From a virus, in IMG/VR virus record IMGVR_UViG_3300031673_000040, positions 1 to 61,464 of that record: a stretch of DNA of 61,464 nt, one strand, 5' to 3'. Below are positions 12,409 through 56,409 of the stretch, one piece after another. The notes below the pieces were generated by a model. That model did not search any database, was not told where the DNA came from, and saw only the letters and a program-made list of their open reading frames with translations. Made by a program: the position numbers and the translations under genes. The stretch's first letter is position 1. Each line of letters opens with the position of its first letter.

Positions 12409-12914
12409 TGCTATCTTACGCAACAGACGATATTCGCTTTCGCGCAGCGCTACGTAGAAAGGTTAGAAGCATGAATGTTCTCGAATACACGAAACGCGGA
12501 GCAGACGGCATCTTCGGTGACTTTACATTCGACGGAGAGTCTACTCCATTCATGAAGACGCTAACCCACGCGTATCTTCAAGAAGACGGAAATTACATCC
12601 CTATTGTAAAACCAGGAATCTACACCTGCCAGCGCGGGCAGCACTATCTAGACAATCCACGCGATCCAAGCAATCCAATTCCAATCGTAACATTTGAGAT
12701 CCTAAACGTTCCGGGGCATAGTGGTATTCTTATGCCTCATTGGGGAAACTTCAACAGAGATTCTGCAGGTTGCACTCTTTGCGGCAAGGAAATCATTACC
12801 TACGACCAACTCGGCGATGAGATGCTTACTCAGTCGAAAGTTACTTTCGGACTCTTCATGGCCCGTATGGAAGGTATAGACTCTTTCCCATTGCAGGTTG
12901 TAGACAACTCATAA
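12408..12914 (+). CDS. DUF5675/YkuD-like putative peptidoglycan-acting enzyme (endolysin candidate)
   Basis: IPIVKPGIYTC...VPGHSGILMPHWGNFNRDSAGCTLCG carries the H-x-G-N...G-C signature of L,D-transpeptidase-fold proteins. GTG start; an alternative ATG lies at 12471. Confidence 0.55.
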   Translation: MLSYATDDIRFRAALRRKVRSMNVLEYTKRGADGIFGDFTFDGESTPFMKTLTHAYLQEDGNYIPIVKPGIYTCQRGQHYLDNPRDPSNPIPIVTFEILNVPGHSGILMPHWGNFNRDSAGCTLCGKEIITYDQLGDEMLTQSKVTFGLFMARMEGIDSFPLQVVDNS

Positions 12915-13138
12915 TGGAAACAGGCTTCTCTTGGGTTAAAAAGGGCTTCACTGCAGAAGATGGTGGTATGGACGACGCGCGTGTCGCAGCAATGCTTATC
13001 GTACTCGCATTCGTAGGGGTTTCAATCGGAATGCTCATTGTATCGCCTGCAACATTTACGTTGCGCGATTTCGGTGTAGGTGCCGCTGGAACAGCGACCG
13101 GAATCGGCGCGTGGTTTAAACTTCGTGGGAGCAATTGA
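12914..13138 (+). CDS. Holin candidate (74 aa, two TMDs)
   Basis: Hydrophobic segments VAAMLIVLAFVGVSIGMLIV and FGVGAAGTATGIGAWF with a charged C-terminus. TAATG overlap upstream. Confidence 0.6.
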   Translation: METGFSWVKKGFTAEDGGMDDARVAAMLIVLAFVGVSIGMLIVSPATFTLRDFGVGAAGTATGIGAWFKLRGSN

Positions 13139-13629
13139 TGCCTACTTTTTTGACGCCGTACCTGTTAGGTATAAAGATTGCAATTGCGCTTCTTCTTGCC
13201 GCCGGCATTGTAGGCGGAACACTTTACGCGTCGTCAACCTACTACAATAAGAAAGCAGACGACAAGCAGCTTCTGCTAGATAAGATAGCGCAAACCCAGC
13301 TCTTGCACAACCTTCAAGTGCAAGCGACTTTCGCAGCAAAATTAACAGCAGCAGGAGAACAACATGCTCAAGATCTTGGTAATGTCGATATTCTTGGTAA
13401 TGCCCTTGTTGGGCTGCAAATCCATCCCCCAATATGTCCCCGTACAACAAGAAGCCGCACCGCAGGTAGCACCCGTGAAGACAATGCCTACAGGCTGGCC
13501 CTTGCCAGAGATGACAAAGCTTTGGCAGAATTTAAGCTTGGGATGGACGCAATCGGAAAGCGCTGCGCAACCCTCAACATCGACGCAATCCAGCACAATA
13601 AAGTCTGCGAAGCCGCAATAGCGCGTTAA
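13138..13629 (+). CDS. i-spanin (Rz-like)
   Basis: N-terminal TMD LLGIKIAIALLLAAGIVGGTLYA followed by a coiled-coil periplasmic domain. Contains the embedded lipoprotein ORF. Confidence 0.7.
   Translation: MPTFLTPYLLGIKIAIALLLAAGIVGGTLYASSTYYNKKADDKQLLLDKIAQTQLLHNLQVQATFAAKLTAAGEQHAQDLGNVDILGNALVGLQIHPPICPRTTRSRTAGSTREDNAYRLALARDDKALAEFKLGMDAIGKRCATLNIDAIQHNKVCEAAIAR
13364..13621 (+). CDS. o-spanin (Rz1-like), fully embedded in the +1 frame of the i-spanin gene
   Basis: Lipoprotein signal MLKILVMSIFLVMPLLGC (lipobox LLGC), followed by a Pro-rich mature part. Confidence 0.7.
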   Translation: MLKILVMSIFLVMPLLGCKSIPQYVPVQQEAAPQVAPVKTMPTGWPLPEMTKLWQNLSLGWTQSESAAQPSTSTQSSTIKSAKPQ

Positions 13630-13690
13630 GTCTATATCCTTTAAATAAATCCTTGACGTCGCTAAAACATACCGTATAATAAGGACTATC

Positions 13691-15283
13691 ATGGCACTTT
13701 CAAAAGATCAGCGCGATGCACTCTCGTCGGACGACTTCGCCGTACCGTCAAAGCGCGAATTGCCTATCCATGACGAAACGCATGTGCGCCTCGCTTGGGA
13801 TATGGTAGAGCGCACAGCAGATCTTACGGATTCCGAGAAAGCAACGGCCCGCGCAAGGATTCTGAAGAAAGCAAAAGAACTTGGCATGAGTACAAAGGAA
13901 TGGTCTGCAGGTGCCATAACCGCCTATGCAATCCCAGAATTAAAGAAGCTACCACTTCACGATCGTGAACACATTTTAATGGCTGCGAACGCTATTAACA
14001 CTGTTAAAGGGATAACAGATAACCAGCGTATCGAGGGCCGCATAAACATCGCCGTAGAAGCAGACCGTTATGGTCTTAATGTGAAGGCAGCAAGAAAGAC
14101 GCACCTGCACTTCGAGAGCATGGCGATTGAGATGCCTACTGTTGTTGACCATCCGAACAGGCATCCATTCTCAGGTGTACTCACGCGCTTGGATATTGCA
14201 AGCGATTTTCCTGTAGGTGGTACAACTTCCAAGAAGGTTGTCATACCCACCGCAGTAGCGGAAGCAGCTATACCTTCTTTGCTCGGCATGGCAGTAGACC
14301 ACACAAAAGATTTCAAAGGTCACGATCGTAAGCAAAAGATCGGGATCATAACAGAAGCATTTATTGGTGAAGTAGACGAAGTTTTAGGTACTCCCCTTCA
14401 CATAGCCGGATTTTTCTATGCAGCAGATTTCCCCACAGAAGTCGGGCGTATTCAAGCTGAACGCGAACTCTTAGGCTTCTCTTATGAAGCAGAAGCGTTT
14501 GTAGCCAGTGTGAATTCCGACCCTTGGGTTTGTACCGCTTGCGATTTCACAGGTGCAGCAGTCCTTTATAAGGATAAGGCGGCCTTTACATCAACATCCA
14601 TCCACGCATCAAAAGACACAGGAGAATCTACCATGACCGAAGCAGAAATCAAGGCTCTTCAAGCAAAAGCAGACAAAGCAGATGCTCTCGAAGCAGCAAA
14701 CAAAAAACTCACGGAAGAAGCTGCACTTGCTGCCGAAGCCGCTCTCAAACATCAGACGCAAGCTGCAAGCCTGCAGAAGCTCGTCAAGCCCCACGCTGAC
14801 GCTCTGCGTTCTGCTGCAACCAACATGGTATCAGCAGGTATCGGCGCAGCAAGCGAAAACGGCCATGCTGCTATCCTGAACAAGATGGCTGACCAGATGG
14901 AAGCTCAATCAGTGATGGGTAAGATCCCCAACACGTTTGACAGTTACTTCTACGGAAGCGCTGCTCCTGAAAAGCAAGTTCAAGAAGCCGCTGCAAAATT
15001 GGCCGCTGAGGCAAAGCAAAAGGACGAACTCGCCGCTATGCAAACCAAGCTGGATGACGCTCTGAAAGCGAAAGCCGCTCTCGAAGCTGGTGCAAAAGAT
15101 GAAGGCAAGAAGAAAGCCTTGAACGCGTCCGCTGCCGCCGGCCTCAAGAAATTGGGACTTGCCGAAAGCCCAGAAGGTATCACCGTCGCAGTGTTGGACG
15201 CAGCCTGCAAGAAAGCAGGTATGTCAAGCGTGGATTCAATCTCGCTGAAAATCAACCTTCGCGCAGCCGGCGCGCTCGTTTAA
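13691..15283 (+). CDS. Head scaffolding/maturation protein (possible protease-scaffold fusion)
   Basis: Two N-terminal LPIHD/LPLHD repeats and an Ala/Lys/Glu-rich C-terminal coiled coil. Lies immediately upstream of the capsid gene. Confidence 0.55.
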   Translation: MALSKDQRDALSSDDFAVPSKRELPIHDETHVRLAWDMVERTADLTDSEKATARARILKKAKELGMSTKEWSAGAITAYAIPELKKLPLHDREHILMAANAINTVKGITDNQRIEGRINIAVEADRYGLNVKAARKTHLHFESMAIEMPTVVDHPNRHPFSGVLTRLDIASDFPVGGTTSKKVVIPTAVAEAAIPSLLGMAVDHTKDFKGHDRKQKIGIITEAFIGEVDEVLGTPLHIAGFFYAADFPTEVGRIQAERELLGFSYEAEAFVASVNSDPWVCTACDFTGAAVLYKDKAAFTSTSIHASKDTGESTMTEAEIKALQAKADKADALEAANKKLTEEAALAAEAALKHQTQAASLQKLVKPHADALRSAATNMVSAGIGAASENGHAAILNKMADQMEAQSVMGKIPNTFDSYFYGSAAPEKQVQEAAAKLAAEAKQKDELAAMQTKLDDALKAKAALEAGAKDEGKKKALNASAAAGLKKLGLAESPEGITVAVLDAACKKAGMSSVDSISLKINLRAAGALV

Positions 15284-15325
15284 AACAGCAGTAAGTACAA
15301 TCGCACACAATTTAGGAGAAATGCA

Positions 15326-16324
15326 ATGAAACTCGGAATCGAAGCAAAAGCAATCACCATGGAAGCCGCAGCCGACTATCTCGGTAACGGCGCAATCGAA
15401 ACGCCTGATTTTGAGACCGAAATCACGGACGTTGTTCGTCGTTCAACCTTCGCGTTGCAGCGCTTCGCTGGCATTCCTGCAACAGGTCACCCGCATCGCT
15501 ACTTCGAGCAAATTGCAATCGCTCAAGCAGCTTCGACCGACCCACGCAACATCGCTGCCGTAGCATCCGGTCCAAATCGCGTGGAACGTCCTGCGTTCAT
15601 CAAAGCGATCGCAGCACAAACCAACTTTGGTCTGTTCGACAAAGAGGTTACCGAGCAGCAAGGCCGTTTCACCAACGTCATCGCCAAAGACATCACCGAC
15701 ATCCTGAACTCTGTTCAGATCAAGTCAGCAAAGATGATCTGGAGTGGTGCGGATACCAGTCTGTCCTTGCCCACCAGCACGGACTACATGGGCGCCTTCA
15801 TGCAGGTTACCAATCAACTGCAAATCGCCCTGGGCGCATCTATCATCGACGGCCTGAAAACTGCTGTTGCAAACATGATCGCCAACCAGTCCTTCGAAGT
15901 GATGCCAACAGCTATCTTCCTGTCGCCAGTACTGGGTGACTTGATTGACCAAGAAGCCAAAGCCGCTCACCTGAACCTGAAAGAAGTGGATGTTGTGGCA
16001 GGCGTCAAAGTTTCTGCCCTGTCTACGCAAGCAGGTATCATCCCGCTGGTGCCGGATCCTTACATGCCCAAAACATCGGACACATCGTATGGGTTCGCAG
16101 CCCCAGGTGCAGGTAACAGCAACTATCTCGCCATGATCTGCATGGAGTCGATGGTTGAGCGTCCCGTTATCTCAGGCGCAAACCACAACCCGAACCCTCG
16201 CCTGTTCCAGTTGGGCTTGCTCGGTAACCTGTCCGGCCAGTACGTCGGCTTGAAGTTTGATACAATAATCTTCAAGGGCCCGACCTACGCTCACGTAGCG
16301 GTCGCTGTTACACGTCCAACGTAA
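15326..16324 (+). CDS. Major capsid protein
   Basis: A 332-aa ORF after the scaffold gene, with SD aggaga and a downstream stem-loop. The call rests on position and size. Confidence 0.75.
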   Translation: MKLGIEAKAITMEAAADYLGNGAIETPDFETEITDVVRRSTFALQRFAGIPATGHPHRYFEQIAIAQAASTDPRNIAAVASGPNRVERPAFIKAIAAQTNFGLFDKEVTEQQGRFTNVIAKDITDILNSVQIKSAKMIWSGADTSLSLPTSTDYMGAFMQVTNQLQIALGASIIDGLKTAVANMIANQSFEVMPTAIFLSPVLGDLIDQEAKAAHLNLKEVDVVAGVKVSALSTQAGIIPLVPDPYMPKTSDTSYGFAAPGAGNSNYLAMICMESMVERPVISGANHNPNPRLFQLGLLGNLSGQYVGLKFDTIIFKGPTYAHVAVAVTRPT

Positions 16325-37403: not shown

Positions 37404-38153
37404 ATGTCAAAAGCATTAGTTGTTTTATCGGGCGGGCAGGACTCCACAACCTGCTTATTCTGGGCCCTGTCACGTTTTGACGAAGTTCATGCAATAACTG
37501 TCAACTACGGTCAAAGACACATAATCGAGATAGAAGCTGCGAAAACTGTTGCTTCAATGGCGAAAACTGCGTCACACGAAATCATTGACCTGCCCGGCGT
37601 ATTGCAATCCGTTTCTCCTCTAACGAGTAATGCACCGCTTGAGAAGTATATTAACGCAGGGCAGATGGCGGAAGTCATTGGTGACAGAGTGGAGCTTACT
37701 TTCGTCCCAATGCGCAACATATTTTTCTTTACACTGGCGATGAACAGGGCTGTTGCACTCGGCTGTGCTGCGCTCGTAACCGGCATTTGTCAAGAAGACA
37801 ACGCAAACTATCCTGATTGCACTGAGCAGTTCCGTAACGACTTTGAATGCACTGCGAATTTCTCATTGGGTAGGAATGAAACTAACTGGATAGAAGTCAT
37901 CGCTCCTCTGATGTTCAAATCCAAGAAGGAAACTGTGCTGCTTGCGCGTGACCTGCCCGGCTGTTGGGAAGCTCTTGCGCACACGCATACGTCGTATGAC
38001 GGTAAGTACCCACCGACGGACATGAACCACTCCAACGTCCTTCGCGCAAAGGGTTTTGAAGATGCTGGCTTGCCTGACCCACTTGTTCTTCGCGCTATAA
38101 AAGAGGGTTTAATGGCGGTTCCGGATACACGGAATTACGATGTCATTGCGTGA
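37404..38153 (+). CDS. queC: 7-cyano-7-deazaguanine synthase (QueC family; atypical C-terminus)
   Basis: PP-loop VVLSGGQDSTTC, YGQRH and YPDC. The C-terminal region HTHTSYDGKYPPTDMNHSNVLRAKGF lacks the Cys cluster. Confidence 0.85.
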   Translation: MSKALVVLSGGQDSTTCLFWALSRFDEVHAITVNYGQRHIIEIEAAKTVASMAKTASHEIIDLPGVLQSVSPLTSNAPLEKYINAGQMAEVIGDRVELTFVPMRNIFFFTLAMNRAVALGCAALVTGICQEDNANYPDCTEQFRNDFECTANFSLGRNETNWIEVIAPLMFKSKKETVLLARDLPGCWEALAHTHTSYDGKYPPTDMNHSNVLRAKGFEDAGLPDPLVLRAIKEGLMAVPDTRNYDVIA

Positions 38154-38346
38154 GTGCATAGACGGCCCTTTAAAAGGAGCTGTTTTTAATCTACCGGAAG
38201 GAAGGGCCTCAGCGTTCTTTCATCGCCGGGAAGGGACTGGTCGTTACCTGCCGGTTGGCGACAAGTTCTTGAAGTTTGAATACTGGCGTAAAATGTCTGA
38301 TAAAGAAATAAAGGAGATGCAAAATGTCACGGATAACACAGTTTAG
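38140..38346 (+). CDS. Hypothetical small protein (68 aa)
   Basis: ORF overlapping the queC stop by 14 nt. Confidence 0.4.
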   Translation: MSLRECIDGPLKGAVFNLPEGRASAFFHRREGTGRYLPVGDKFLKFEYWRKMSDKEIKEMQNVTDNTV

Positions 38347-38506
38347 AAGTCTATCTGATCGAGAGCTACTTGCACTCGCAGAGAAAGACGTTCTGCCCAA
38401 CTTCATAGGGACACAGCGCCAGCAGGACATCGTTGTCGAGCTTGTCCAGCGACTCGCAATAGCAGGCCGCCGAGAGCCTAACGTAGGCGGGAAGGGCATA
38501 CTGTGA
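38324..38506 (+). CDS. Hypothetical small protein (60 aa)
   Basis: SD aaggag lies 7 nt upstream. GTGA overlap with queD. Confidence 0.5.
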   Translation: MSRITQFRSLSDRELLALAEKDVLPNFIGTQRQQDIVVELVQRLAIAGRREPNVGGKGIL

Positions 38507-38949
38507 TAACCGCCGAACGTTACCATGACATATCCGCCGGTCATCGCGTGTTTGGGCACGAAAGCAAATGCGCACACCTTCATGGACACAACTATCGTAT
38601 ACACTTCAAGATAGCTGGTGCTCCAACGGAGGACAATCAGGAGGGCTTGGACACTGTGGGTCGTGTTATCGACTTCTCCGTTATCAAAGAAAAACTCTGC
38701 ATGTGGCTCGAAGAGAAGTGGGATCACAAGTTCCTTGCTTGGAAAGAAGACCCATGGGCTGATTACTTGTACCAGATTGACCGTCAAGGCCTTGTCATAA
38801 CGCCGTTTAACCCAACTGCTGAGAACATGGCACACTATCTTATGTTCACTGTCGGACCCGAGCAACTTAAAGGCACTGGTTGCGTTCTCATATCTGTACG
38901 CGTTGAAGAAACGCGTAAGTGTACAGCAACCTCGGAGATATTCGTATGA
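38503..38949 (+). CDS. queD: 6-carboxy-5,6,7,8-tetrahydropterin synthase
   Basis: HRVFGHESKCAHLHGHNY contains the Cys and His-x-His Zn site. The size is typical of QueD/PTPS. Confidence 0.9.
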   Translation: MITAERYHDISAGHRVFGHESKCAHLHGHNYRIHFKIAGAPTEDNQEGLDTVGRVIDFSVIKEKLCMWLEEKWDHKFLAWKEDPWADYLYQIDRQGLVITPFNPTAENMAHYLMFTVGPEQLKGTGCVLISVRVEETRKCTATSEIFV

Positions 38950-39845
38950 GCAAGGAAAAGTACTATCTAAATCATCGTGAGATAGAGCGTCTGGCGTCTG
39001 CGGCAATAGCTCCTCACTTGATTCGTAGGGACTGCCAAACAACTGTTTACGCTGTCCCGAGAGGAGGTGTTCCAGCGGCCTACGCAATGGCCGCCGCCGG
39101 TCTCAATATACGTCTTGTTGACGTACCCGAAGATGCCGAACTGATAGTTGACGACATAATTGCCAGCGGCGCAACACGCGAACGTTATGCGCACCTAAAA
39201 GTACCGTTCGTATCTCTGATAGACCAACGAAAAGAGTCTATTTATTCTGGGAGATGGATTGTCTTTCCGTGGGAAGCAACTGACAAGAAGGATGATTCGT
39301 TTTCCGATAACATAACTCGCCTTTTGCAATTCATTGGCGAAGATCCGAAACGTGGCGGCCTAATTGAAACGCCTCAACGTGTCGTTAAAGCATGGGAAGA
39401 ATGGACGAGTGGCTATGGAAAAGATCCTGCAAAGATCCTTAAGGTATTTGACGACGGCGGCGAGTCTTACGACCAAATCGTCCTTGTCAGAGATATTCCT
39501 TTCTACAGCCATTGCGAACACCATCTCGCTCCTTTTTTCGGTACTGCTCACGTTGGGTACATTCCTAACGGGAGCATTGTTGGTCTTAGTAAGCTGCCTG
39601 AGGTTGTTGATATTTTTGCTAGACGTCTACAGGTACAAGAGCGTCTCACTAATCAGATTGCTGACGCTATTTGGGATAATCTGAAACCCAAAGCAGTGGG
39701 CGTTGTTGTGTCTGCTCGGCACTTGTGCATGGAATCACGGGGCAAGAAAAAGAGCGGTAGTTCCACTGTAACGAGTGCGCTGCGAGGAACAATGCTTACC
39801 GAACCTGACTGTCGTGCGGAGTTTTTCAACTTGATTAAACTGTAA
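38946..39845 (+). CDS. folE: Fusion protein: N-terminal type I phosphoribosyltransferase-like domain + GTP cyclohydrolase I
   Basis: N-terminal part: VPRGGVPAAY...ELIVDDIIASGAT (PRPP loop). C-terminal part: ETPQRVVKAW, FYSHCEHHLAPF and LQVQERLT (GCH-I). ATGA overlap with queD. Confidence 0.85.
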   Translation: MSKEKYYLNHREIERLASAAIAPHLIRRDCQTTVYAVPRGGVPAAYAMAAAGLNIRLVDVPEDAELIVDDIIASGATRERYAHLKVPFVSLIDQRKESIYSGRWIVFPWEATDKKDDSFSDNITRLLQFIGEDPKRGGLIETPQRVVKAWEEWTSGYGKDPAKILKVFDDGGESYDQIVLVRDIPFYSHCEHHLAPFFGTAHVGYIPNGSIVGLSKLPEVVDIFARRLQVQERLTNQIADAIWDNLKPKAVGVVVSARHLCMESRGKKKSGSSTVTSALRGTMLTEPDCRAEFFNLIKL

Positions 39846-39854
39846 CCTGAGGTA

Positions 39855-39883
39855 TTGCATAAGATTACGTGTTGTGCAATAAT
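39855..39883 (+). promoter_or_regulatory. Sigma70-like promoter TTGCAT-17-AATAAT
   Basis: Read directly: ttgcat aagattacgtgttgtgc aataat. Shares the TTGCATAAG core with the leftward operator palindromes. Confidence 0.5.
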
Positions 39884-39900
39884 ACAACTACTCAGGCGCT

Positions 39901-39926
39901 GTGGTGCGAGGAACAGTTCGCACCAC
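39901..39926 (+). other. Perfect 9-bp stem-loop in the folE-ligase gap
   Basis: gtggtgcga ggaacagt tcgcaccac, with no T-tract. Confidence 0.5.
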
Positions 39927-39954
39927 AACCGATGAGTCTATAACCGGAGGAAAT

Positions 39955-40857
39955 ATGAAGCCAATGAAATTTGAAAGTCTTATGGATCGCGATGGTAGCG
40001 TTCACCTGGAGCGCGTGATTTATCCGAAGTACGGCAGTGCAAAGATAGACGGTAATCGCTTGTATGTGGAAGATGGGCAAGCAAAGGCGTCGTCCGGTAA
40101 GCCAACAAAGAACGCGTACATTCGTGAATACCTGAGCAAGCCTGAGTTCGACGGTCTTGACGGTGAGGTGGTTGTCGGATCACCAACAGCAAAGGACGTT
40201 CGGCGTCGCACAAGTAGCGGCGTAAGCACGCTCTTCGGCGAACCTGACTTCACCTTCCTTGTGTTTGACGACAGAACAAACCCTAACTTAGCATTCATGC
40301 AGCGCCTTGAAAATGCTGCCGATCGTGTAAATGCTTTTGACGACAAGCGCATAAAGCTAGTCCCACATCTTCGCATAAGCGACATCTCTGACCTGCTCGG
40401 ATTCGAGAGCAAACTGCTCGAAGTAGGCTGGGAAGGCATCATGCTCCGTGACCCACTTGCGCCCTACAAAGCGGGAAAGACAACGGTTCGCGAGAATTGG
40501 GGCTTCAAACTGAAACGGTTTGAGGACGGCGAAGCAGTTATTATCGGTTCTTACGAAAGGATGCACAATGACAACGAAGCTACCACAAACGAACTTGGCG
40601 GTACCAGTCGTTCGTCGCACGTTGGAAATAAACGACCTGCAGGAGATCTTGGAGGCTTGGAAGTCCGGGATGTTAAAACCGGGGTTGAATTTAGTGTGGG
40701 AACCGGGTTTGACGCCGCAGTTCGTGTGGTTCTCTGGAACGAGCGTGAGACCCTTGAGGGGCGAATTATCACATATAAGCATTTCCCTATAGGTGCGAAG
40801 GACAAGCCAAATCTACCGTCATTCGTTGCATTCAGGGACGAGGATGATATATCGTGA
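39955..40857 (+). CDS. lig: ATP-dependent DNA ligase
   Basis: Adenylation motif SAKIDGNR (KxDG), plus EGIMLR and FKLKRF. SD ggagga upstream of the ATG at 39955. Confidence 0.85.
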   Translation: MKPMKFESLMDRDGSVHLERVIYPKYGSAKIDGNRLYVEDGQAKASSGKPTKNAYIREYLSKPEFDGLDGEVVVGSPTAKDVRRRTSSGVSTLFGEPDFTFLVFDDRTNPNLAFMQRLENAADRVNAFDDKRIKLVPHLRISDISDLLGFESKLLEVGWEGIMLRDPLAPYKAGKTTVRENWGFKLKRFEDGEAVIIGSYERMHNDNEATTNELGGTSRSSHVGNKRPAGDLGGLEVRDVKTGVEFSVGTGFDAAVRVVLWNERETLEGRIITYKHFPIGAKDKPNLPSFVAFRDEDDIS

Positions 40858-41195
40858 TTGGCGCACTTGGCGACCTTGTGTCGCAATACCTTTCAGTACC
40901 AAGAGAAGTCAGAGCGGCGGGTATGCCGAGTGACGAAGTACGCTGCATCGGTTGTAGCACCGTAGCAAAAGGAGAGGTAGAAACGCAAGCTCTGTTTTAT
41001 CACAGTAAAGCAGACACCCATAAACCAAACGGGATAACAGTGTGTAGGAAAGCAGGATCCGTCTTGCAGCCCTGCAAAGCATGTACCTGTAAAAAGCAAA
41101 GGAATAGTCGTGAACGAAACAAACAGCGAAAATCTAAAAGCACTCGGCAGCAGCACAACGTACTCGTACGACAAGCCCAACCCGGAACTCCTTGA
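40854..41195 (+). CDS. Zn-ribbon-like basic protein (113 aa), overlapping queF by 86 nt
   Basis: CIGC ... CKAC Cys pairs. GTGA overlap with the ligase stop. The Lys/Arg-rich tail is read in an alternative frame of the queF 5' end. Confidence 0.4.
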
Positions 41196-41529
41196 GTACT
41201 TTCCGTGCCCATTTGACGACCGCGTCGGCGGCTTGGTTCAGATTGAGGCGCCTGAGTTTACAAGCCTTTGCCCAAAGACGGGACAACCTGACTTTGCGAA
41301 GATCGTCATTGACTACATTCCCGAAGAGCGTTGCGTGGAATCGAAGTCCCTGAAACTGTACCTGGGTTCTTTCCGTATGCACGGCGAGTTCCACGAGTCT
41401 TGTGTTGCGCGTATCCATCGTGACCTGGCTTTGCTTCTGCGTCCTAAATGGTTGCGGGTTCAAGGTCAATTTACGCCGAGGGGCGGCATCAAGTTCTGGC
41501 CTACGGTTGAAAAGAACTGGACTGAATAA
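41110..41529 (+). CDS. queF: NADPH-dependent 7-cyano-7-deazaguanine reductase (unimodular YkvM type)
   Basis: Catalytic-Cys motif [14 protein letters not shown], QueF motif ESKSLKLYL, and TPRGGI. Confidence 0.9.
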
Positions 41530-42602
41530 TGTTCACCCGCACATACGAGCTATCCCTCAATAAAGGATACGTTGCTCATTGGGGACTCGCGGAAGCTGTG
41601 CGGGAACTTATACAGAACGCGCTGGACAGCGAATCACCCTTTGTTTATGAATTCAAGAATGACGGTGACGAGCATACTCTCAAGTTGCGTTCTGAGTTTA
41701 CGACCTTGTCTCCACAAACGCTGCTTCTTGGTTCAACAAGTAAAGCGGACAGCGAGGACAGCATCGGCAGTTTTGGCGAGGGCTACAAAATTGCGCTACT
41801 TGTTCTTACGCGACTGTTCAAACCCGTTAGCATCGCCAATGGAGATAAGTTGTGGGAGCCGCGATTTAAGTACAACTCCAAATTCGAGCAGGAACTTCTT
41901 GTTGTTGAGGAAAGCACACTGGCTTATAAGAATACCGGGCTTACGTTTGAGATACGTGGGTTGACGAGTGACGAGTGCGACGACATACGCGACTCCTGCT
42001 TGCGTATGCAGAGCGACATTGGGGCGATAAAGCAAACGCCATACGGCGACATCCTGCTTGAGCGTCCAGGTAAGCTCTACGTCGGTGGCCTGTTCATTTG
42101 CTCTACAGAACTCATACACGGCTACAACATCAAACCGTCCAACATCAAGTTGGAACGCGATAGGCAAACCGTCTCGTCGTGGGAATTAAGCGCCACGACG
42201 ACGAACATGTGGTACGCGACCGAAGAGTATGAAACGATCGCAAACATGATTAACGAGGGCGTCCCAGATGTTGCAGATGCCCAATGGAGTTCGCCGGCGC
42301 TTGTCAAAGAAGCATGTTACAGACTTTTCCGTGAACAGCACCCCGGTGCAATCATTGCGGAAAATCAAACTCATCTTAAAGAGCTTGTTGCCAAGGGTAT
42401 GGAAAAGGTCGTTTTCATAGGCGGGTCTATGTACGCAAACGTATCCAGTTCAAGAGCATACAGAAGCGAAACCCGTGTTGCTGTGGAGTCGATAAATGAC
42501 CGTCTTGTGCGGTGGCTTGGCGCAAATCGTGGTAAGATGCAAGCCGCTGCGATTGTTGCTTTTAAAGAACTGATTAGCGAATCGAAAGGCTGGCATAAGT
42601 AA
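41529..42602 (+). CDS. GHKL (Bergerat-fold) ATPase-like protein, function unknown
   Basis: N-box ELIQNALDS (ExxxNAxD) and G2-like box IGSFGEGYK (compare Hsp90 IGQFGVGFY). TAATG overlaps with queF upstream and dpdA downstream. Confidence 0.55.
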   Translation: MFTRTYELSLNKGYVAHWGLAEAVRELIQNALDSESPFVYEFKNDGDEHTLKLRSEFTTLSPQTLLLGSTSKADSEDSIGSFGEGYKIALLVLTRLFKPVSIANGDKLWEPRFKYNSKFEQELLVVEESTLAYKNTGLTFEIRGLTSDECDDIRDSCLRMQSDIGAIKQTPYGDILLERPGKLYVGGLFICSTELIHGYNIKPSNIKLERDRQTVSSWELSATTTNMWYATEEYETIANMINEGVPDVADAQWSSPALVKEACYRLFREQHPGAIIAENQTHLKELVAKGMEKVVFIGGSMYANVSSSRAYRSETRVAVESINDRLVRWLGANRGKMQAAAIVAFKELISESKGWHK

Positions 42603-43552
42603 TGCCTACCGTTAACTACTACTTCTCCGGCATTGGTAACTTCTCTGTTGAGCAGAAGGAGAAGCTATCAGGCTTATGCGAGTACCGTCTGCAATCGTGT
42701 CACAAGGAGTACGTGCGACAAACAGCGGACTGGATGTACTACGCGTCGCAGCATAAGAATACAGTTGAAATCATGCTGGACTCTGGTGCATTTACTGCGT
42801 GGAACAAAGGCAAGGTTATTGAGCTTGAACCCCTGATACAGGTGTATGGTGAGATGATTGAGAAGTACGAACATGGCTTGCGTAAGGTTTGGTTGATTAA
42901 CTTGGATAAGATTCCGGGTGAGCGAGGTAGAACAGCAAGCCACGAAGAACTCGAGGAGGCAATGCGTGAATCAGATAGAAATTACGAAATCCTTGTTAAG
43001 CATTTCGGCGATCGTGTACTTCCTGTATTCCATCAAAACGAGCCGAAGGAAAGGTTACGCAATGTCTGCCAAATGGCGGACTACATTTGTATCTCTCCAA
43101 GGAACGACGTCGCGGAAAAGTTCCGTATCTCCTGGGCGGCGGAAGTACATACGCTCCTTCTTAACGAGCCTAAGAGAGTACGAACTCATGGACTTGCGAC
43201 GACAGGGATGCACATGCTCAGAAACGTTGATTGGTTTTCGGCCGACTCTGCTTGGTGGATGCAAACCGCGATTAACGGGTCAATCTTCTACCTGGCACAC
43301 GATGGAGACTTACGCACAATCCAAGTATCGGAGAGAGCTGGTGCTCGTAAAGATGCGGGACAGCATTATACAACAATTCCGAGAGCAATGCAGAAAGTAA
43401 TAGACGACCGTCTTGCTATTCACGGAATCACAATTAAAGAAGTTGCAGAGCACCATACGCCAAGGTTCGTCGCCTGCATCTACGAAGTTCTTGAATGGCT
43501 GAAAGTGGCGAAGCCGAAACCGCTACACCACGTAGGATTATTCGACCTATGA
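42602..43552 (+). CDS. dpdA: DpdA-like DNA-guanine transglycosylase (TGT superfamily)
   Basis: IMLDSGAFTAWNKG matches the catalytic Asp-Ser-Gly motif of TGT/DpdA. Supported by the que gene context. Confidence 0.7.
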   Translation: MPTVNYYFSGIGNFSVEQKEKLSGLCEYRLQSCHKEYVRQTADWMYYASQHKNTVEIMLDSGAFTAWNKGKVIELEPLIQVYGEMIEKYEHGLRKVWLINLDKIPGERGRTASHEELEEAMRESDRNYEILVKHFGDRVLPVFHQNEPKERLRNVCQMADYICISPRNDVAEKFRISWAAEVHTLLLNEPKRVRTHGLATTGMHMLRNVDWFSADSAWWMQTAINGSIFYLAHDGDLRTIQVSERAGARKDAGQHYTTIPRAMQKVIDDRLAIHGITIKEVAEHHTPRFVACIYEVLEWLKVAKPKPLHHVGLFDL

Positions 43553-43809
43553 TATACGTTCTAGCATGTTGCCAAGCCTGTGCAGAAGTTGTTGCTCGAG
43601 ATGCAGGTATCGGCTATAGCAGATGGCAAAGTGTAAACAGCGCGGAAACTCTCCGTGGCCTACGCAACGTAGAGGTGCTATGCTGCACGAATTTAAGCAG
43701 TAGACGTGACTACAACGAACTTTACGAGGAACTTAACGTTCGTGGGATAACATGTAGGGTAATTGTCCATAATGGCTTTAAACAAGAAGGAGTGCAAAAT
43801 GCAACGTAA
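43549..43809 (+). CDS. Hypothetical protein (86 aa; start MIYVLACC)
   Basis: ATGA overlap with dpdA. Confidence 0.5.
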   Translation: MIYVLACCQACAEVVARDAGIGYSRWQSVNSAETLRGLRNVEVLCCTNLSSRRDYNELYEELNVRGITCRVIVHNGFKQEGVQNAT

Positions 43810-44077
43810 AGAAGTATATGAGGCGATAGACAGCGAACGCGAATACCAGATTCGCAAATGGGGAGACAACGCAAAACACGGTCACGAAGTAGGCGCATAC
43901 CTTACGCTGCTTCGCAGACATCTCGCCTTGGCGGAAATTCACTGGTCGCAGAGCGGCACAGACTATTTGGCACTTGACGAACTGCGGCAGATCCTAGCTA
44001 TCGGCGTTTCCTGCGCGGAACAGCACGGTATTAACTTCCGAAGCCCGCACATTTCGGTTGCATCGAAACGCACGTAG
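43799..44077 (+). CDS. Small all-alpha protein, possibly of the MazG-like NTP-pyrophosphohydrolase superfamily
   Basis: SD aaggag upstream. EAIDSEREYQIRKWG...YLTLLRRHL resembles phage dNTP pyrophosphohydrolase N-termini. Confidence 0.35.
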   Translation: MQRKEVYEAIDSEREYQIRKWGDNAKHGHEVGAYLTLLRRHLALAEIHWSQSGTDYLALDELRQILAIGVSCAEQHGINFRSPHISVASKRT

Positions 44078-44137: not shown

Positions 44138-44178
44138 TTAACGTACAGCCCCGCAAGTGGCAGAAAGAGGTGTATATC

Positions 44179-44550
44179 ATGCACATTGTAACTGATATTG
44201 AAAAAAGACACGCTGAGATGGTAACGCTCCTCGGCAAACCTGGCGAAGCTATATGCTTTACACTAACGCCTGAGGACGCGCACATCTGGCACATGGCAAC
44301 CGGCATATCTGGTGAGGCGGGTGAGATACTGGACGCTATCAAAAAGGTCGTAGTCTACCGCAAGCCCATTGACCGCGAAAACGTCATTGAAGAACTCGGC
44401 GACATTGAGTTCTACATGGAGGGCTTGCGTCAAGGACTCAATATAACTCGCGAAGAAGTTCTCGAGTACAACTATCACAAGCTAATGAAGAAGAGATACC
44501 CTAACGGTTACTCTGACCAAGCGGCACAGGCAAGGGCGGACAAGCAATGA
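44179..44550 (+). CDS. mazG: MazG-like nucleotide pyrophosphohydrolase
   Basis: SGEAGEILDAIKK ... EELGDIEFY ... NYHKLMKKRY: the EExxE/D metal-binding helices. Confidence 0.8.
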   Translation: MHIVTDIEKRHAEMVTLLGKPGEAICFTLTPEDAHIWHMATGISGEAGEILDAIKKVVVYRKPIDRENVIEELGDIEFYMEGLRQGLNITREEVLEYNYHKLMKKRYPNGYSDQAAQARADKQ

Positions 44551-45089
44551 GACTAATCGGCCTAGCAGGACCAGCGGGGTCTGGTAAAGACACAATAGCG
44601 GACTACCTTGTCGAAACGTATGACTACGATAAGATGTCATTCGCAGCACCCATCAAAGACGCACTCTGCGCAATGTTCAATTGGGATCCAAGTAAGTTGA
44701 ACGACCGTGAGTGGAAGGAAGCTGTGCTCCCTGATATTGGCAAGAGCCCGCGTCAACTGATGCAAACCCTTGGTACAGAATGGGGGCGCAATCTTGTCAA
44801 CCCTCATTTGTGGCTAATCATCGCAAAAGGTGAAATCGAGTATGCGCAGCATCACGATTTTGATATCGTTGTATCTGATGTCCGTTTTGAGAACGAAGCT
44901 AAAATGATTCGTGAGATGGGCGGCGTTATTTGGCACATAGAACGCGATCCAAAAGCAGCTAAGATGGCACATGCAAGCGAAGCTGGAGTTGAGCGAACGC
45001 TTGACGACGTTCTTTTTCTCAATACCGGGACGATTGAGGCTGCGTACGGTATTGCTGATTTTATCATCGAGGCTTTCCCGACATGCTAG
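44547..45089 (+). CDS. Deoxynucleoside monophosphate kinase
   Basis: P-loop GLAGPAGSGKDT. The size and FENE/DVRF pattern resemble phage dNMP kinases. Confidence 0.65.
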   Translation: MRLIGLAGPAGSGKDTIADYLVETYDYDKMSFAAPIKDALCAMFNWDPSKLNDREWKEAVLPDIGKSPRQLMQTLGTEWGRNLVNPHLWLIIAKGEIEYAQHHDFDIVVSDVRFENEAKMIREMGGVIWHIERDPKAAKMAHASEAGVERTLDDVLFLNTGTIEAAYGIADFIIEAFPTC

Positions 45090-48966: not shown

Positions 48967-49734
48967 TCATCTTAAATTTAAGATCTTGTGTAGTTGCAGA
49001 GATAGCTTGTGTCCGTGTTTCATGCAGAGGGTCACAGCGAGCTCCACATTCGCTTGCGTAGCAACTCCATCGCGCATGTGGGTAGTAACATCCTCATGTA
49101 CGTAGTACTCTTCCATAGGCTGGAGATACACTTGACGGTTGGCGAGTACTTTCTCGCTAGGCGGCGCCAGTGCTGCGCTCTTCTCACCTGCTTGTGTGTT
49201 CGTTATGGGTATGCCATGCTCTTCTGTATGATCGTCGAATGTCGATATAAGATACTTGTACGCGTCTGCATTTGCTTCAACCCGCGGATGCAACTTGGGT
49301 GTTTTTGGAGACACCACAATCAATGTCTCAAGGCGGTTGCCAAGCTCCGGACGCAGGTCTTCCTCAAGCAAGCTCTCAGGCCATACAGTGCCCGCTGTCT
49401 CAATCTGCACTTGCATTCCGTTCTCGCGTAGAGCACGAATCAATGGGGCTATCTCTTGCATCATTGGCTCGCCGCCGGTTAGCACAACAAGACGGTTACC
49501 AAACTCGATGCAGTCGCTAACGATGTTTTCTACGCTGACAACTGACGACGACTTCGTGTCGAAATCAGTATCACAGAAAGTGCAGCGCAGATTGCAACCG
49601 CCCAAGCGAACAAATGTGGCGGGTGTGCCAGCAAGCGGACCTTCGCCTTGTATGGTTGGGAACAGTTCACGCAGGAGAAGGAACCCTTCTTCTGGCAGGT
49701 GTGACTTCTTAAGTACTGGGTTATTTCCGAACAT
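48967..49734 (-). CDS. queE: 7-carboxy-7-deazaguanine synthase (radical SAM)
   Basis: GGCNLRCTFCDT contains the CxxxCxxC cluster. Also LTGGEP. SD aaggagga upstream. Confidence 0.9.
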   Translation of the reverse strand: MFGNNPVLKKSHLPEEGFLLLRELFPTIQGEGPLAGTPATFVRLGGCNLRCTFCDTDFDTKSSSVVSVENIVSDCIEFGNRLVVLTGGEPMMQEIAPLIRALRENGMQVQIETAGTVWPESLLEEDLRPELGNRLETLIVVSPKTPKLHPRVEANADAYKYLISTFDDHTEEHGIPITNTQAGEKSAALAPPSEKVLANRQVYLQPMEEYYVHEDVTTHMRDGVATQANVELAVTLCMKHGHKLSLQLHKILNLR

Positions 49735-49855: not shown

Positions 49856-49870
49856 AGCGCATACAGTGGC

Positions 49871-49896
49871 AAAAAAGCCCAGATTAACTGGGCTTT
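49871..49896 (-). terminator. Rho-independent terminator of the leftward early transcript
   Basis: Minus-strand reading: aaagcccag ttaat ctgggcttttttgcc. Confidence 0.8.
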
Positions 49897-55525: not shown

Positions 55526-55702
55526 TCATCTGTTAGGGATTACTTTCGCGAAGAGATCGTCCACGCGCTTTACTAAATCCTGCACCACAAGGCGCTCTTC
55601 TTCTGTCCAGCGAGCGACAAGCACCACTTGGTGCAGTTCTTCACGAGCGGTCATTAAGTGCTTTGCGAGTAGCAGTTTATTCGCTTGGTAAGCTGTAATC
55701 AT
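55526..55702 (-). CDS. Hypothetical helical protein (58 aa)
   Basis: ATGA overlap with the thyX stop. Confidence 0.45.
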   Translation of the reverse strand: MITAYQANKLLLAKHLMTAREELHQVVLVARWTEEERLVVQDLVKRVDDLFAKVIPNR

Positions 55703-56409
55703 GTCTGTCTTTCCGCAACAAAGAGTTCCCAAGTTCGCGGGAAGTTCGTTTCGATAAGAGCACCAACAGCTTCGGCGTACTGGCGGATTTCCCATTGGGC
55801 GGCTGGATGTGCGCGAAGGGTTAAGAAAGCAAGCCAGTTCCGCAGGTTGGCATGTGCTCTCATTCGCGAGTAGCGAGCGACCGGTACTGGTAGGCGCGCA
55901 AGTTCTTTAGGGACGCCCATACGCAGGCCGTTCTCATATGCTATCTGGGCTGTGGAATAGGCGCTCTCCAAATAGCGTTGGAATGCTTCTGCTTTTCCGA
56001 CAGTCATCGGCTCACCACTTCCTTTAGCTTGTTTATTCGTCGTTGCTGTGTTCGCACCGAGCATAAGACGCTCCACTGTCGGGATATAGTTCTCATCCGG
56101 CAGTGGTATGTATCGCGCAGACATTTCATTGTAGCTCTGTGTCCGGTGACGGTGCCACTCGCGGAACACAAAGATCGGCGCTTTGACTTCGATAATCATG
56201 CCGGCCATCTCAAACGGAGTCATGTGCTTATTATTGTACAGGTAGGCGAGCAATTTCTCATCACCTGCTTTTTCGCTGTCGCCCCATCCAAGGAAACCCT
56301 TGTCGGTTGACATCCGGGCGGCTTCAATGATGCTTTCATCCTTGCCATACACCTCTACGAGTTGCACGTATCCTGTATCTAATACAGGTACTTTTTTGTA
56401 GTCAGACAT
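55699..56409 (-). CDS. thyX: FAD-dependent thymidylate synthase
   Basis: ThyX signature EWHRHRTQSYNEMSARY (RHRxxSxxxxSxR). Confidence 0.92.
   Translation of the reverse strand: MSDYKKVPVLDTGYVQLVEVYGKDESIIEAARMSTDKGFLGWGDSEKAGDEKLLAYLYNNKHMTPFEMAGMIIEVKAPIFVFREWHRHRTQSYNEMSARYIPLPDENYIPTVERLMLGANTATTNKQAKGSGEPMTVGKAEAFQRYLESAYSTAQIAYENGLRMGVPKELARLPVPVARYSRMRAHANLRNWLAFLTLRAHPAAQWEIRQYAEAVGALIETNFPRTWELFVAERQT

Follow-up and report, generated by a model that had tools for sequence, protein, structure and literature searches.

Interleaved QueF- and DpdA-type genes in an uncultured tailed phage predict preQ1 in its DNA

Results

Six pathway enzymes are encoded in the window

IMG/VR record IMGVR_UViG_3300031673_000040 is a 61,464-nt stretch of DNA from an uncultured tailed phage with about 90 open reading frames (ORFs), and we refer to the whole of it as the window. 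It encodes six enzymes of a candidate pathway for 7-deazaguanine DNA modification, which are GTP cyclohydrolase I (FolE), QueD, QueE, QueC, the reductase QueF that acts on 7-cyano-7-deazaguanine (preQ0), and a DpdA-type transglycosylase (Table 1). A sequence-only reading had named these enzymes from short diagnostic motifs. We found every quoted motif in the ORF to which it had been assigned, and scoring of about 50 ORFs, a set that takes in every non-structural ORF of 100 aa or more, against profiles returned the same six enzymes with matches far beyond chance. We conclude that the six assignments, that of QueE less firmly, hold up under profile, structure and residue checks and that the enzymes are intact.

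Table 1. Features at the pathway locus and around QueE
Feature	Position	Strand	Length	Support
QueC (7-cyano-7-deazaguanine synthase)	37404..38153	+	249 aa	Pfam QueC 3.7e-48, full length; phrog_1550 5e-55
Small ORF	38140..38346	+	68 aa	no Pfam/PHROG match; called as gene on ERZ27256810
Small ORF	38324..38506	+	60 aa	no Pfam/PHROG match; called as gene on ERZ27256810
QueD (6-carboxytetrahydropterin synthase)	38503..38949	+	148 aa	PF01242 (PTPS) 4e-22; phrog_2389 8e-44
Gpt/HGXPRT-like phosphoribosyltransferase (PRTase) domain, FolE N-terminus	38946..39290	+		homologue profile, AlphaFold, Foldseek
GTP cyclohydrolase I (FolE) catalytic domain	39291..39845	+		PF01227 1.2e-69; PDB GTP cyclohydrolase I matches to 3e-51
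ATP-dependent DNA ligase	39955..40857	+		PF14743, PF01068; phrog_114 1e-47
Cys-rich small ORF, CxxC...PCxxC and K/R-rich basic tail	40854..41195	+		no family match
QueF, unimodular NADPH-dependent preQ0 reductase	41110..41529	+	139 aa	PF14489 1e-31; B. subtilis QueF 4f8b 3.9e-37
GHKL/sacsin-like ATPase-fold protein	41529..42602	+	357 aa	phrog_6077 8.5e-95
DpdA-type 7-deazaguanine DNA transglycosylase	42602..43552	+	316 aa	phrog_887 4.7e-45; AlphaFold/Foldseek; hhalign
QueE (7-carboxy-7-deazaguanine synthase), radical-SAM	48967..49734	-	255 aa	phrog_2076 'QueE-like' 1e-45, full length
Terminator-like hairpin AAAGCCCAG-UUAAU-CUGGGCUUU, then U-run (U6)	49870..49895	-		fold -14.1 kcal/mol, z -2.69

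QueC carries the PP-loop motif SGGQDSTT (37428-37451) and scores 153.1 bits against TIGR00364, where the cutoff is 150.3. The C-terminal four-cysteine zinc site (C...CxxCxxC) is missing from it, and in the alignment HTSYDG...MNHSNVLR stands in its place. The zinc-site cysteines are also lost in phages R5C and Bhz54 and in the metagenomic relatives L005 and L035, whereas they are kept in VpKK5, MS1 and Bacillus subtilis. Among the window, R5C, Bhz54, L005 and L035, the cysteine-less C-terminus is itself conserved as HTSYDG...DHAxxLR...PDPLxLRA, and on these alignments we treat this form of QueC as a putative conserved variant subfamily rather than as a sign of inactivity.

QueD has the Cx3HGH motif (CAHLHGHNY, 38569-38595), which sets QueD apart from other PTPS types in studies of COG0720, and it scores 78.8 bits against PF01242 (cutoff 22.4); its best NCBIfam match is TIGR03367 at 67 bits, under the equivalog cutoff of 89. 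The SHCEHH (39507-39524) and QVQERLT (39630-39650) motifs of FolE both align to solved structures of GTP cyclohydrolase I, and the protein exceeds the cutoff of three NCBIfam models, including NF006825 (238 bits, cutoff 174) and TIGR00063 (211 bits, cutoff 182). In QueE the radical-SAM motif CNLRCTFC (Cx3Cx2C) is at 49573-49596 on the minus strand, and the five best NCBIfam matches are all QueE models, all of them under their equivalog cutoffs.

QueE is the last gene of a leftward block that converges on the rightward operon, and it is on the opposite strand in L005 and L035 as well. It had been described as lying on the opposite strand in a terminator-bounded unit of its own. The strand is as described and a terminator-like hairpin is present, but the hairpin (49895-49870) sits upstream of QueE, between QueE and the preceding leftward gene, and the 22-nt gap at the 3′ end of QueE has no convincing terminator.

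QueF is a nitrile reductase by its conserved residues

The catalytic-cysteine motif of QueF is at 41254-41295 and ESKSLKLY is at 41338-41361, and the protein scores 145.6 bits against TIGR03139 (cutoff 86.9). Its alignment with B. subtilis QueF (4f8b; E 3.9e-37) begins at the N-terminus and shows identity at the thioimide-forming cysteine (Cys55), the aspartate of QPDF, the NADPH motif and HGEFHE. The entry for the C55A mutant, 4fgc, differs from the phage protein at exactly the catalytic cysteine. The archaeal amidinotransferase QueF-L is without the NADPH motif E(S/L)K(S/A)hK(L/Y)(Y/F/W) (PMC10516641). Because both the catalytic cysteine and the NADPH motif are kept, we identify the phage protein as a nitrile reductase, and the presence of the motif led us to reject QueF-L as its identity. 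The earlier identification of QueF is thus borne out, with the catalytic cysteine in place on re-inspection.

A DpdA-type transglycosylase with a TGT-like fold

The putative transglycosylase carries LDSGAFT at 42776-42796. It matched nothing in Pfam or NCBIfam, and at sequence level PDB gave no real hit either to phmmer or to a 32-sequence profile in hmmsearch. It does match PHROG 887, which is annotated as 'queuine tRNA-ribosyltransferase', and tblastn matched 145 phage records with that same annotation. Among isolates, Pseudanabaena phage Pan1 and the two Dinoroseobacter phages R5C and R26L came first, with 40-51% identity in the portion that matched; phages of Arthrobacter, Streptococcus (MS1), Vibrio and Rhizobium and the Queuovirinae came next, and E values for the Queuovirinae and MS1 were 1e-11 to 4e-15.

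An AlphaFold model built with 32 homologues is a TIM barrel with a predicted local distance difference test score (pLDDT) of 91.6 and a predicted template modeling (TM) score of 0.89. Its best Foldseek matches in PDB were the bacterial tRNA-guanine transglycosylase (TGT) 3blo, the archaeal TGT 1j2b and QTRT2, each with a probability of 1.0 and TM scores of about 0.52-0.55, and generic TIM barrels ranked below the TGTs. The link to TGT came solely through structure prediction and Foldseek, since the sequence searches of PDB had failed. Among viral proteins the best structural neighbors were phage DpdAs, including those of R5C and DpdA2 of nt-1.

Profile comparison placed the protein within DpdA. 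Against a reference profile of DpdAs from MS1, a Klebsiella Queuovirinae phage, VpKK5, Bhz54 and PaMx25, hhalign gave a probability of 100% and an E value of 1.3e-41 over 278 columns, with DSGAF, FHxxE, (T/V)HG and DSxxW lined up between the two profiles. Residues D60, D215 and H196 are invariant in the 32 homologues and align with DSGAFS, DSSSW and VHGFG of the references, respectively. We equate H196 of the window by alignment only with the 'His196' of the literature, a conserved histidine that DpdA2 lacks; DpdA2 itself was defined by its non-detection with the 9g DpdA in PSI-BLAST. The ORF had been put forward as a DpdA-like member of the TGT superfamily, and the PHROG 887 match, the TGT-like fold and the hhalign result all agree with that call. 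We conclude, from sequence profiles and the predicted structure, that 42602-43552 is a 9g/DpdA1-like DpdA for which guanine exchange in DNA is predicted.

QueF accompanies DpdA in related phages

Four metagenomic relatives, with DpdAs 83, 79, 68 and 65% identical to that of the window (L005 being the 83%-identical one), keep the same interleaved layout including QueF. The conserved order is primase, UvrD helicase, QueC, QueD, FolE, (ligase), QueF, (GHKL), DpdA, clamp and PolA. In three of the four, QueE is past PolA and on the opposite strand; in the fourth, L036, it was not found within the stretch examined.

We counted the co-occurrence of QueF and DpdA by searching the window proteins against the loci gathered in this analysis. 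In each of the nine Que-carrying loci with a DpdA at least 39% identical to that of the window, QueF was immediately upstream of DpdA, at a distance of no more than about 1.2 kb. It was missing in 10 loci that have a 24-29% identical DpdA together with at least two other preQ0-pathway genes, the Queuovirinae included, and the sole exception among such distant DpdAs was L022, where a 26% identical DpdA occurs with QueF. These counts indicate that the DpdA clade of the window is consistently linked to QueF, and the strictness of the linkage supports 7-aminomethyl-7-deazaguanine (preQ1) as the relevant substrate.

The clade also has a distinctive segment, SPRND, at residues 165-169 (43094-43108). 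The window clade reads Y-I-C-V-SPRND-x-x-E where the Queuovirinae read Y-I-T-LGGLVG, and MS1 also has LGGLVG. SPRND was found in eight of the nine QueF-linked loci (L001, L005-L008 and L034-L036) and the ninth, L014, has SPAND; bacterial homologues of the clade that have no Que genes carry SPTNK, SPNNK or SPDNG at the same position. The matching segment of TGT is GGLxVG, which we take to line the pocket for the 7-substituent, and an acidic residue at this site could be a good fit for preQ1 with its protonated aminomethyl group. MS1, presumably a relative of the preQ1-inserting phage Dp-1, nevertheless keeps LGGLVG.

FolE is fused to a PRTase-like domain

FolE starts with an ATG at 38946, as it was also called on the source contig ERZ27256810, and the polypeptide is 299 aa long. 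About 115 residues at its N-terminus form an extra domain with the motifs VPRGG (the RGG of the pyrophosphate loop), VDDIIASGAT (the loop for phosphoribosyl pyrophosphate, PRPP) and WIVFPWE. Across the family P38, R39, G40, G41, D69, D70, S74, G75 and T77 are invariant. A profile of 26 homologues found xanthine-guanine PRTases (XGPRTs) as its best PDB match (E 1.4e-4), the AlphaFold model of the domain has a pLDDT of 90, and the top 50 Foldseek matches in PDB were all type I PRTases, nearly all of them purine PRTases (HGXPRT, XGPRT). The sequence and the model point to a minimal type I PRTase-like fold. Residue 73, which we take to be the position of the catalytic aspartate (Asp92 of Escherichia coli XGPRT, Asp137 of human HGPRT), is alanine in the window and aspartate in at least 90% of homologues, and the flexible loop of about 20 residues between strands 2 and 3 of Gpt is missing throughout the phage family. 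On account of the alanine and the lost loop, activity of the domain is uncertain, and we label it 'PRTase-like' rather than a proven Gpt.

A word-index search with the 122-aa domain gave just two matches; an exhaustive search of representatives was used instead and returned a family of 448. Its members are stand-alone (105-170 aa) or fused (about 290-315 aa), with at least 120 clusters of FolE fusions in metagenomes. Isolates VpKK5, Bhz54 and PaMx25 have the fusion and are all without QueF. Stand-alone copies occur within Que/DpdA clusters on three unrelated metagenome-assembled genome (MAG) contigs (L023, L025 and L027). In all, the loci with homologues, fused or stand-alone, are L007, L023, L025, L027, L034, L035, L037, L038 and L039, of which L039 is PaMx25. 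The domain is missing in L005 and L036, which keep the pathway. Its recurrence in Que/DpdA clusters, including those without QueF, argues for a recurrent accessory of the pathway, one that goes with the GTP end rather than with preQ1. In the literature searched we found no paper that mentions the domain in connection with DpdA.

We consider it possible, if doubtful, that the domain closes a guanine cycle, in which guanine released by DpdA and PRPP would give GMP, host kinases would convert GMP to GTP, and GTP would feed FolE again. If true, the modification pathway would largely feed itself, and the removal of free guanine would pull the reversible exchange towards insertion of preQ1. Each genome copy has 29,892 G, and we estimate roughly that, with heavy substitution over a burst, the guanines released and consumed would be comparable to the GTP pool of a cell.

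A separate observation concerns PaMx25_38 (L039, 6862-7236), a 'hypothetical protein' between queD and folE. The protein fails to align with the PRTase family; tblastn nonetheless matches its stretch of DNA to the domain, and what is really made there may be FolE extended at its N-terminus, in another frame. The annotated ORF was left out of account.

Genes interleaved with the pathway

The pathway genes had been described as split and interleaved with unrelated genes, and a ligase, a Cys-rich ORF, a GHKL protein and two small ORFs are indeed found among them, the ligase and the GHKL gene being part of the backbone. Relative L035 has small ORFs at the same position between QueC and QueD. Two Abidjanvirus phages without Que genes, PaMx11 and Ab18, show the same succession of ligase, small ORF and GHKL gene, and their ligase is 40% and their GHKL protein 42-44% identical to that of the window. 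Overall, GHKL homologues 42-46% identical adjoin a ligase in Pseudomonas phages without Que genes and also occur in Vibrio phages, where the GHKL protein stands alone, again without Que genes. The pairing of ligase and GHKL in phages without Que genes indicates that both are backbone genes of the replication module and not part of the pathway. Neither L005 nor the ERZ1426850 contig has the GHKL gene; L035 has it at the position seen in the window, and L036 has it between QueC and QueD, with the ligase 8 kb away. From this variable placement of GHKL and ligase we view the Que genes as scattered through a plastic replication module.

We had considered the GHKL ORF as a partner in the pathway and rejected it because homologues occur in phages without Que genes and because it is missing from the 83%-identical relative. 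The protein (phrog_6077) has a wide distribution among phages, those of Pseudomonas, Vibrio and Pectobacterium included, and its gene often adjoins that of a DNA ligase; its names in GenBank vary between histidine kinase, RIIA and HATPase.

The Cys-rich ORF extends 86 nt into the start of QueF, in a different frame. Its overlap, cysteines and basic tail are conserved in L005 and L035, and it was not called as a gene on ERZ27256810. It is probably a zinc ribbon. Comparison with the small ORF that follows the ligase in Abidjanvirus showed no convincing homology (18-19% identity). The cysteine pattern of DpdM-type proteins is CxxCxxCC; the ORF has CxxC...PCxxC and no DUF3109/YkgJ match, and a DpdM identity is not supported.

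Genome context

Structural and then replication genes form a rightward block from about 6.3 to 48.9 kb, and early and accessory genes form a leftward block from about 49 to 61 kb that runs on into 1-5 kb and encodes ThyX, an RNase T-like exonuclease, a DUF932 protein and a peptide deformylase. The FolE and DpdA proteins are 100% identical to those of the metagenomic contig k141_2874615 of European Nucleotide Archive (ENA) analysis ERZ27256810, which is 61,486 nt long. This identity to a contig of that size indicates that the window is essentially a whole phage genome, and we regard it as the near-complete genome, of about 61.5 kb, of an uncultured tailed phage.

No nucleotide match emerged when the 6.1-kb region was compared by megablast with 50,697 GenBank phage records, and tblastn with the 332-aa ORF at 15326-16324 gave no match, from which we conclude that the phage has no close cultured relative. 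No isolate exceeds 44% identity to its family-A DNA polymerase. The host is not inferable from the best match among 185,579 species genomes, which is 42% identical and on MAG contigs. GC content is even throughout the region, so a recent insertion is not indicated. ARAGORN found no tRNA gene in the window, in agreement with the sequence-only reading.

Further genes were noted along the way. A peptide deformylase at 1993-2418 on the minus strand (PF01327 3.8e-40, phrog_2890) has no evident tie to the Que genes. The phage encodes a MazG-like pyrophosphohydrolase, a deoxynucleoside monophosphate (dNMP) kinase and ThyX (44170-45089 on the plus strand and 55699-56409 on the minus strand), which together suggest that it remodels the nucleotide pool as well; the ORFs scanned included no ribonucleotide reductase. 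In L005 the DNA polymerase (12608-15340) is 910 aa, versus 636 aa in the window, and an HNH gene is nearby, which suggests that the L005 polymerase carries an insertion such as an intein or homing element.

Discussion

Comparison with known systems

R5C, R26L and Pan1, the isolates with the best DpdA matches, also hold their Que and DpdA genes within the replication module. R5C has primase, helicase, QueD/QueC/FolE/QueF, DpdA and, further on, radical-SAM QueE and PolA, in a looser order and with unrelated genes between them, and its DpdA and QueC share the SPRND motif and the cysteine-less C-terminus, respectively. However, none of the three phages has nucleotide-level similarity to the window, and the PolA of R5C is only 40% identical. 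The R5C DpdA is 430 aa long, its QueE is on the same strand as the other genes and its FolE is without the PRTase domain. DNA modification in R5C, R26L and Pan1 is predicted only.

A measured system with the same enzyme set is that of Dp-1, which has DpdA, FolE, QueD, QueE and QueC with a QueF of the unimodular type, and in which 2′-deoxy-preQ1 (dPreQ1) was detected by liquid chromatography with tandem mass spectrometry (PMC6884629). MS1, which stands in for Dp-1 in our comparisons, has a DpdA that aligns over 87% of the window DpdA, but at 24.5% identity, with LGGLVG in place of the SPRND of the window clade. Its cluster is compact, at the genome end and with the transporter Vut_1, and its QueC keeps the cysteine cluster. 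For mechanism we adopted as the model Vibrio phage VH7D, which has DpdA2, QueF and DpdM, and Cellulophaga phage phiSM; work in E. coli showed that QueF acts there on free preQ0 and that DpdA inserts preQ1 (PMC10516641). These differ from the window in that DpdA2 belongs to another subfamily, the nt-1 DpdA2 being a distant structural match (E 1.6e-5), and in that DpdM goes on to produce the methylated form mdPreQ1, whereas no DpdM-like protein was found in the window.

The Queuovirinae (CAjan, 9g, iggy, VpKK5 and PaMx25) have a compact queE-queC-queD-folE-dpdA cluster next to the clamp and PolA genes. Their DpdA is homologous to that of the window and likewise just upstream of the sliding clamp and a family-A polymerase, and the PRTase-FolE fusion is common to VpKK5, Bhz54, PaMx25 and the window. 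In contrast to the window, they have no QueF and make 2′-deoxy-preQ0 (dPreQ0) or 2′-deoxyarchaeosine (dG+) (PMC10484667), their clusters are contiguous and their DpdAs are 24-26% identical. In bacteria, DpdA of the dpdA-K island is a TGT paralogue that puts preQ0-derived bases into DNA (PMC6884629), but the island resembles a restriction-modification system with DpdB, DpdC and more, and modifies less than 0.1% of G (PMC10516641); none of its partner genes are in the window. The type of system is therefore one that has been described (Hutinet 2019; Cui 2023), and the interleaved layout has also been published, in R5C, R26L and Pan1.

Proposed pathway and the base it would insert

The best explanation of the locus, to which we give a probability of roughly three in four, is that guanine in the phage DNA is exchanged for preQ1 after replication and that this protects the DNA from restriction. 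In this pathway FolE would convert GTP to dihydroneopterin triphosphate, QueD would make 6-carboxytetrahydropterin, QueE would make 7-carboxy-7-deazaguanine (CDG) and QueC would make preQ0. QueF would then reduce the free preQ0 base to preQ1 with NADPH. After replication, DpdA would cut the glycosidic bond of selected guanines, free the guanine and insert preQ1 to leave dPreQ1, and the modified DNA would resist host restriction enzymes that need to contact G. From the genes we infer DNA rather than tRNA as the target and preQ1 as the base, and likewise the extent of substitution and the protection it would confer.

The prediction of dPreQ1 fits experiments on other phages and is reinforced by the linkage of QueF to DpdA. 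Phage HVTV-1 and Dp-1, the latter with DpdA and QueF, both yielded dPreQ1 when measured (PMC6884629). The QueFs of phiSM and VH7D complement an E. coli queF deletion, VH7D DpdA2 inserts preQ1 into plasmid DNA about five-fold better than preQ0, and the characterized DpdAs all act on DNA after replication (PMC10516641). The known follow-on enzymes DpdM and DpdN are preQ1 methyl- and formyltransferases, respectively (PMC10516641). Among the roughly 50 ORFs scanned with Pfam, with no direct comparison to DpdM or DpdN sequences, neither a DpdN-type PF00551 protein nor a DUF3109/YkgJ-type DpdM was found, which makes plain dPreQ1 the default prediction.

Several points weigh against this interpretation. 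The base in virion DNA is predicted from the genes alone, and for the R5C-like DpdA clade DNA modification is likewise only predicted (PMC11806900). The NCBIfam scores of QueD and QueE fall under the equivalog cutoffs, and with no canonical zinc site the presumed activity of QueC is argued from conservation, without precedent. A DpdA can accept several bases, as VH7D DpdA2 does in inserting preQ0 and CDG besides preQ1, which makes a mixture possible. Small ORFs with no family match, within the cluster or next to it, might alter the base further, and the scan for modifying enzymes covered non-structural ORFs.

These points bear on the alternative that survives best, although we regard it as unlikely, in which the same machinery operates and the base is something other than plain dPreQ1. 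The product would be either a mixture dominated by dPreQ0 or dADG (the deoxynucleoside of 7-amido-7-deazaguanine), with a promiscuous DpdA or limiting QueF, or a methylated, formylated or newly derivatized preQ1. Flavobacterium phage immuto, with the full set from FolE to QueF, carries formylated fdPreQ1 and not dPreQ1 (PMC10516641), VH7D DpdA2 sets a precedent in accepting all of preQ1, preQ0 and CDG, and five ORFs of the window belong to no family (38140-38346, 38324-38506, 40854-41195, 43495-43809 and 43763-44077). Yet these ORFs are short (60-113 aa), both of those downstream of DpdA are missing in L035, and neither the formyltransferase nor the DUF3109/YkgJ-like family is represented among the ORFs scanned. 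The strict linkage of this DpdA clade to QueF also favors preQ1 as the substrate.

It is far less probable that these are auxiliary metabolic genes that raise preQ1 or queuosine in host tRNA and tune the translation of phage genes, with the TGT-like protein acting on tRNA. Such a role draws on the fold shared with tRNA-guanine transglycosylases and on the GenBank annotation of the homologues, and it was raised historically for phages with Que genes but no DpdA (PMC6884629). Even by profile, however, the protein has no sequence-level match to a TGT in PDB, yet it aligns end to end with phage DpdAs, and it is 316 aa long. Bacterial TGT carries a CxCxxC...H zinc motif, and this motif is not in the DpdA sequence. 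There is no queA, queG or queH among the ORFs scanned and no tRNA gene, and the DpdAs tested so far all modify DNA (PMC6884629, PMC10516641).

Least probable of all is a pre-replicative route, in which the PRTase-like domain of FolE would use PRPP to make a 7-deazaguanine nucleotide and the phage polymerase would incorporate the modified deoxynucleoside triphosphate. ToyH and TubE convert a deazapurine base and PRPP to the nucleotide in antibiotic pathways, and the cluster does hold a purine-PRTase fold in a phage with its own dNMP kinase, MazG-like pyrophosphohydrolase and family-A polymerase. This route is set aside because the conserved DpdA makes a second one unnecessary, no ribonucleotide reductase is encoded among the ORFs scanned, L005 and L036 have the full pathway but no PRTase domain, and the literature concludes that known 7-deazaguanine DNA modifications are all post-replicative (PMC10516641).

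Implications

With post-replicative exchange of guanine for preQ1 as the preferred explanation, the phages for which dPreQ1 is predicted gain, with the window, a further member whose genome is well resolved and nearly complete. Such a phage would be expected to show the usual consequences of modified DNA, which are resistance to G-dependent restriction, possible resistance to Cas9, altered nanopore signals and biases in library preparation. Only two parts of the system could teach something new, namely the fusion of a PRTase-like domain to FolE and the DpdA clade locked to QueF. In the R5C-like SPRND clade every DpdA has a QueF partner, and the clade is a promising candidate for a preQ1-dedicated DpdA; the recurrent PRTase-like partner of FolE could add precursor recycling to the scheme of the pathway.

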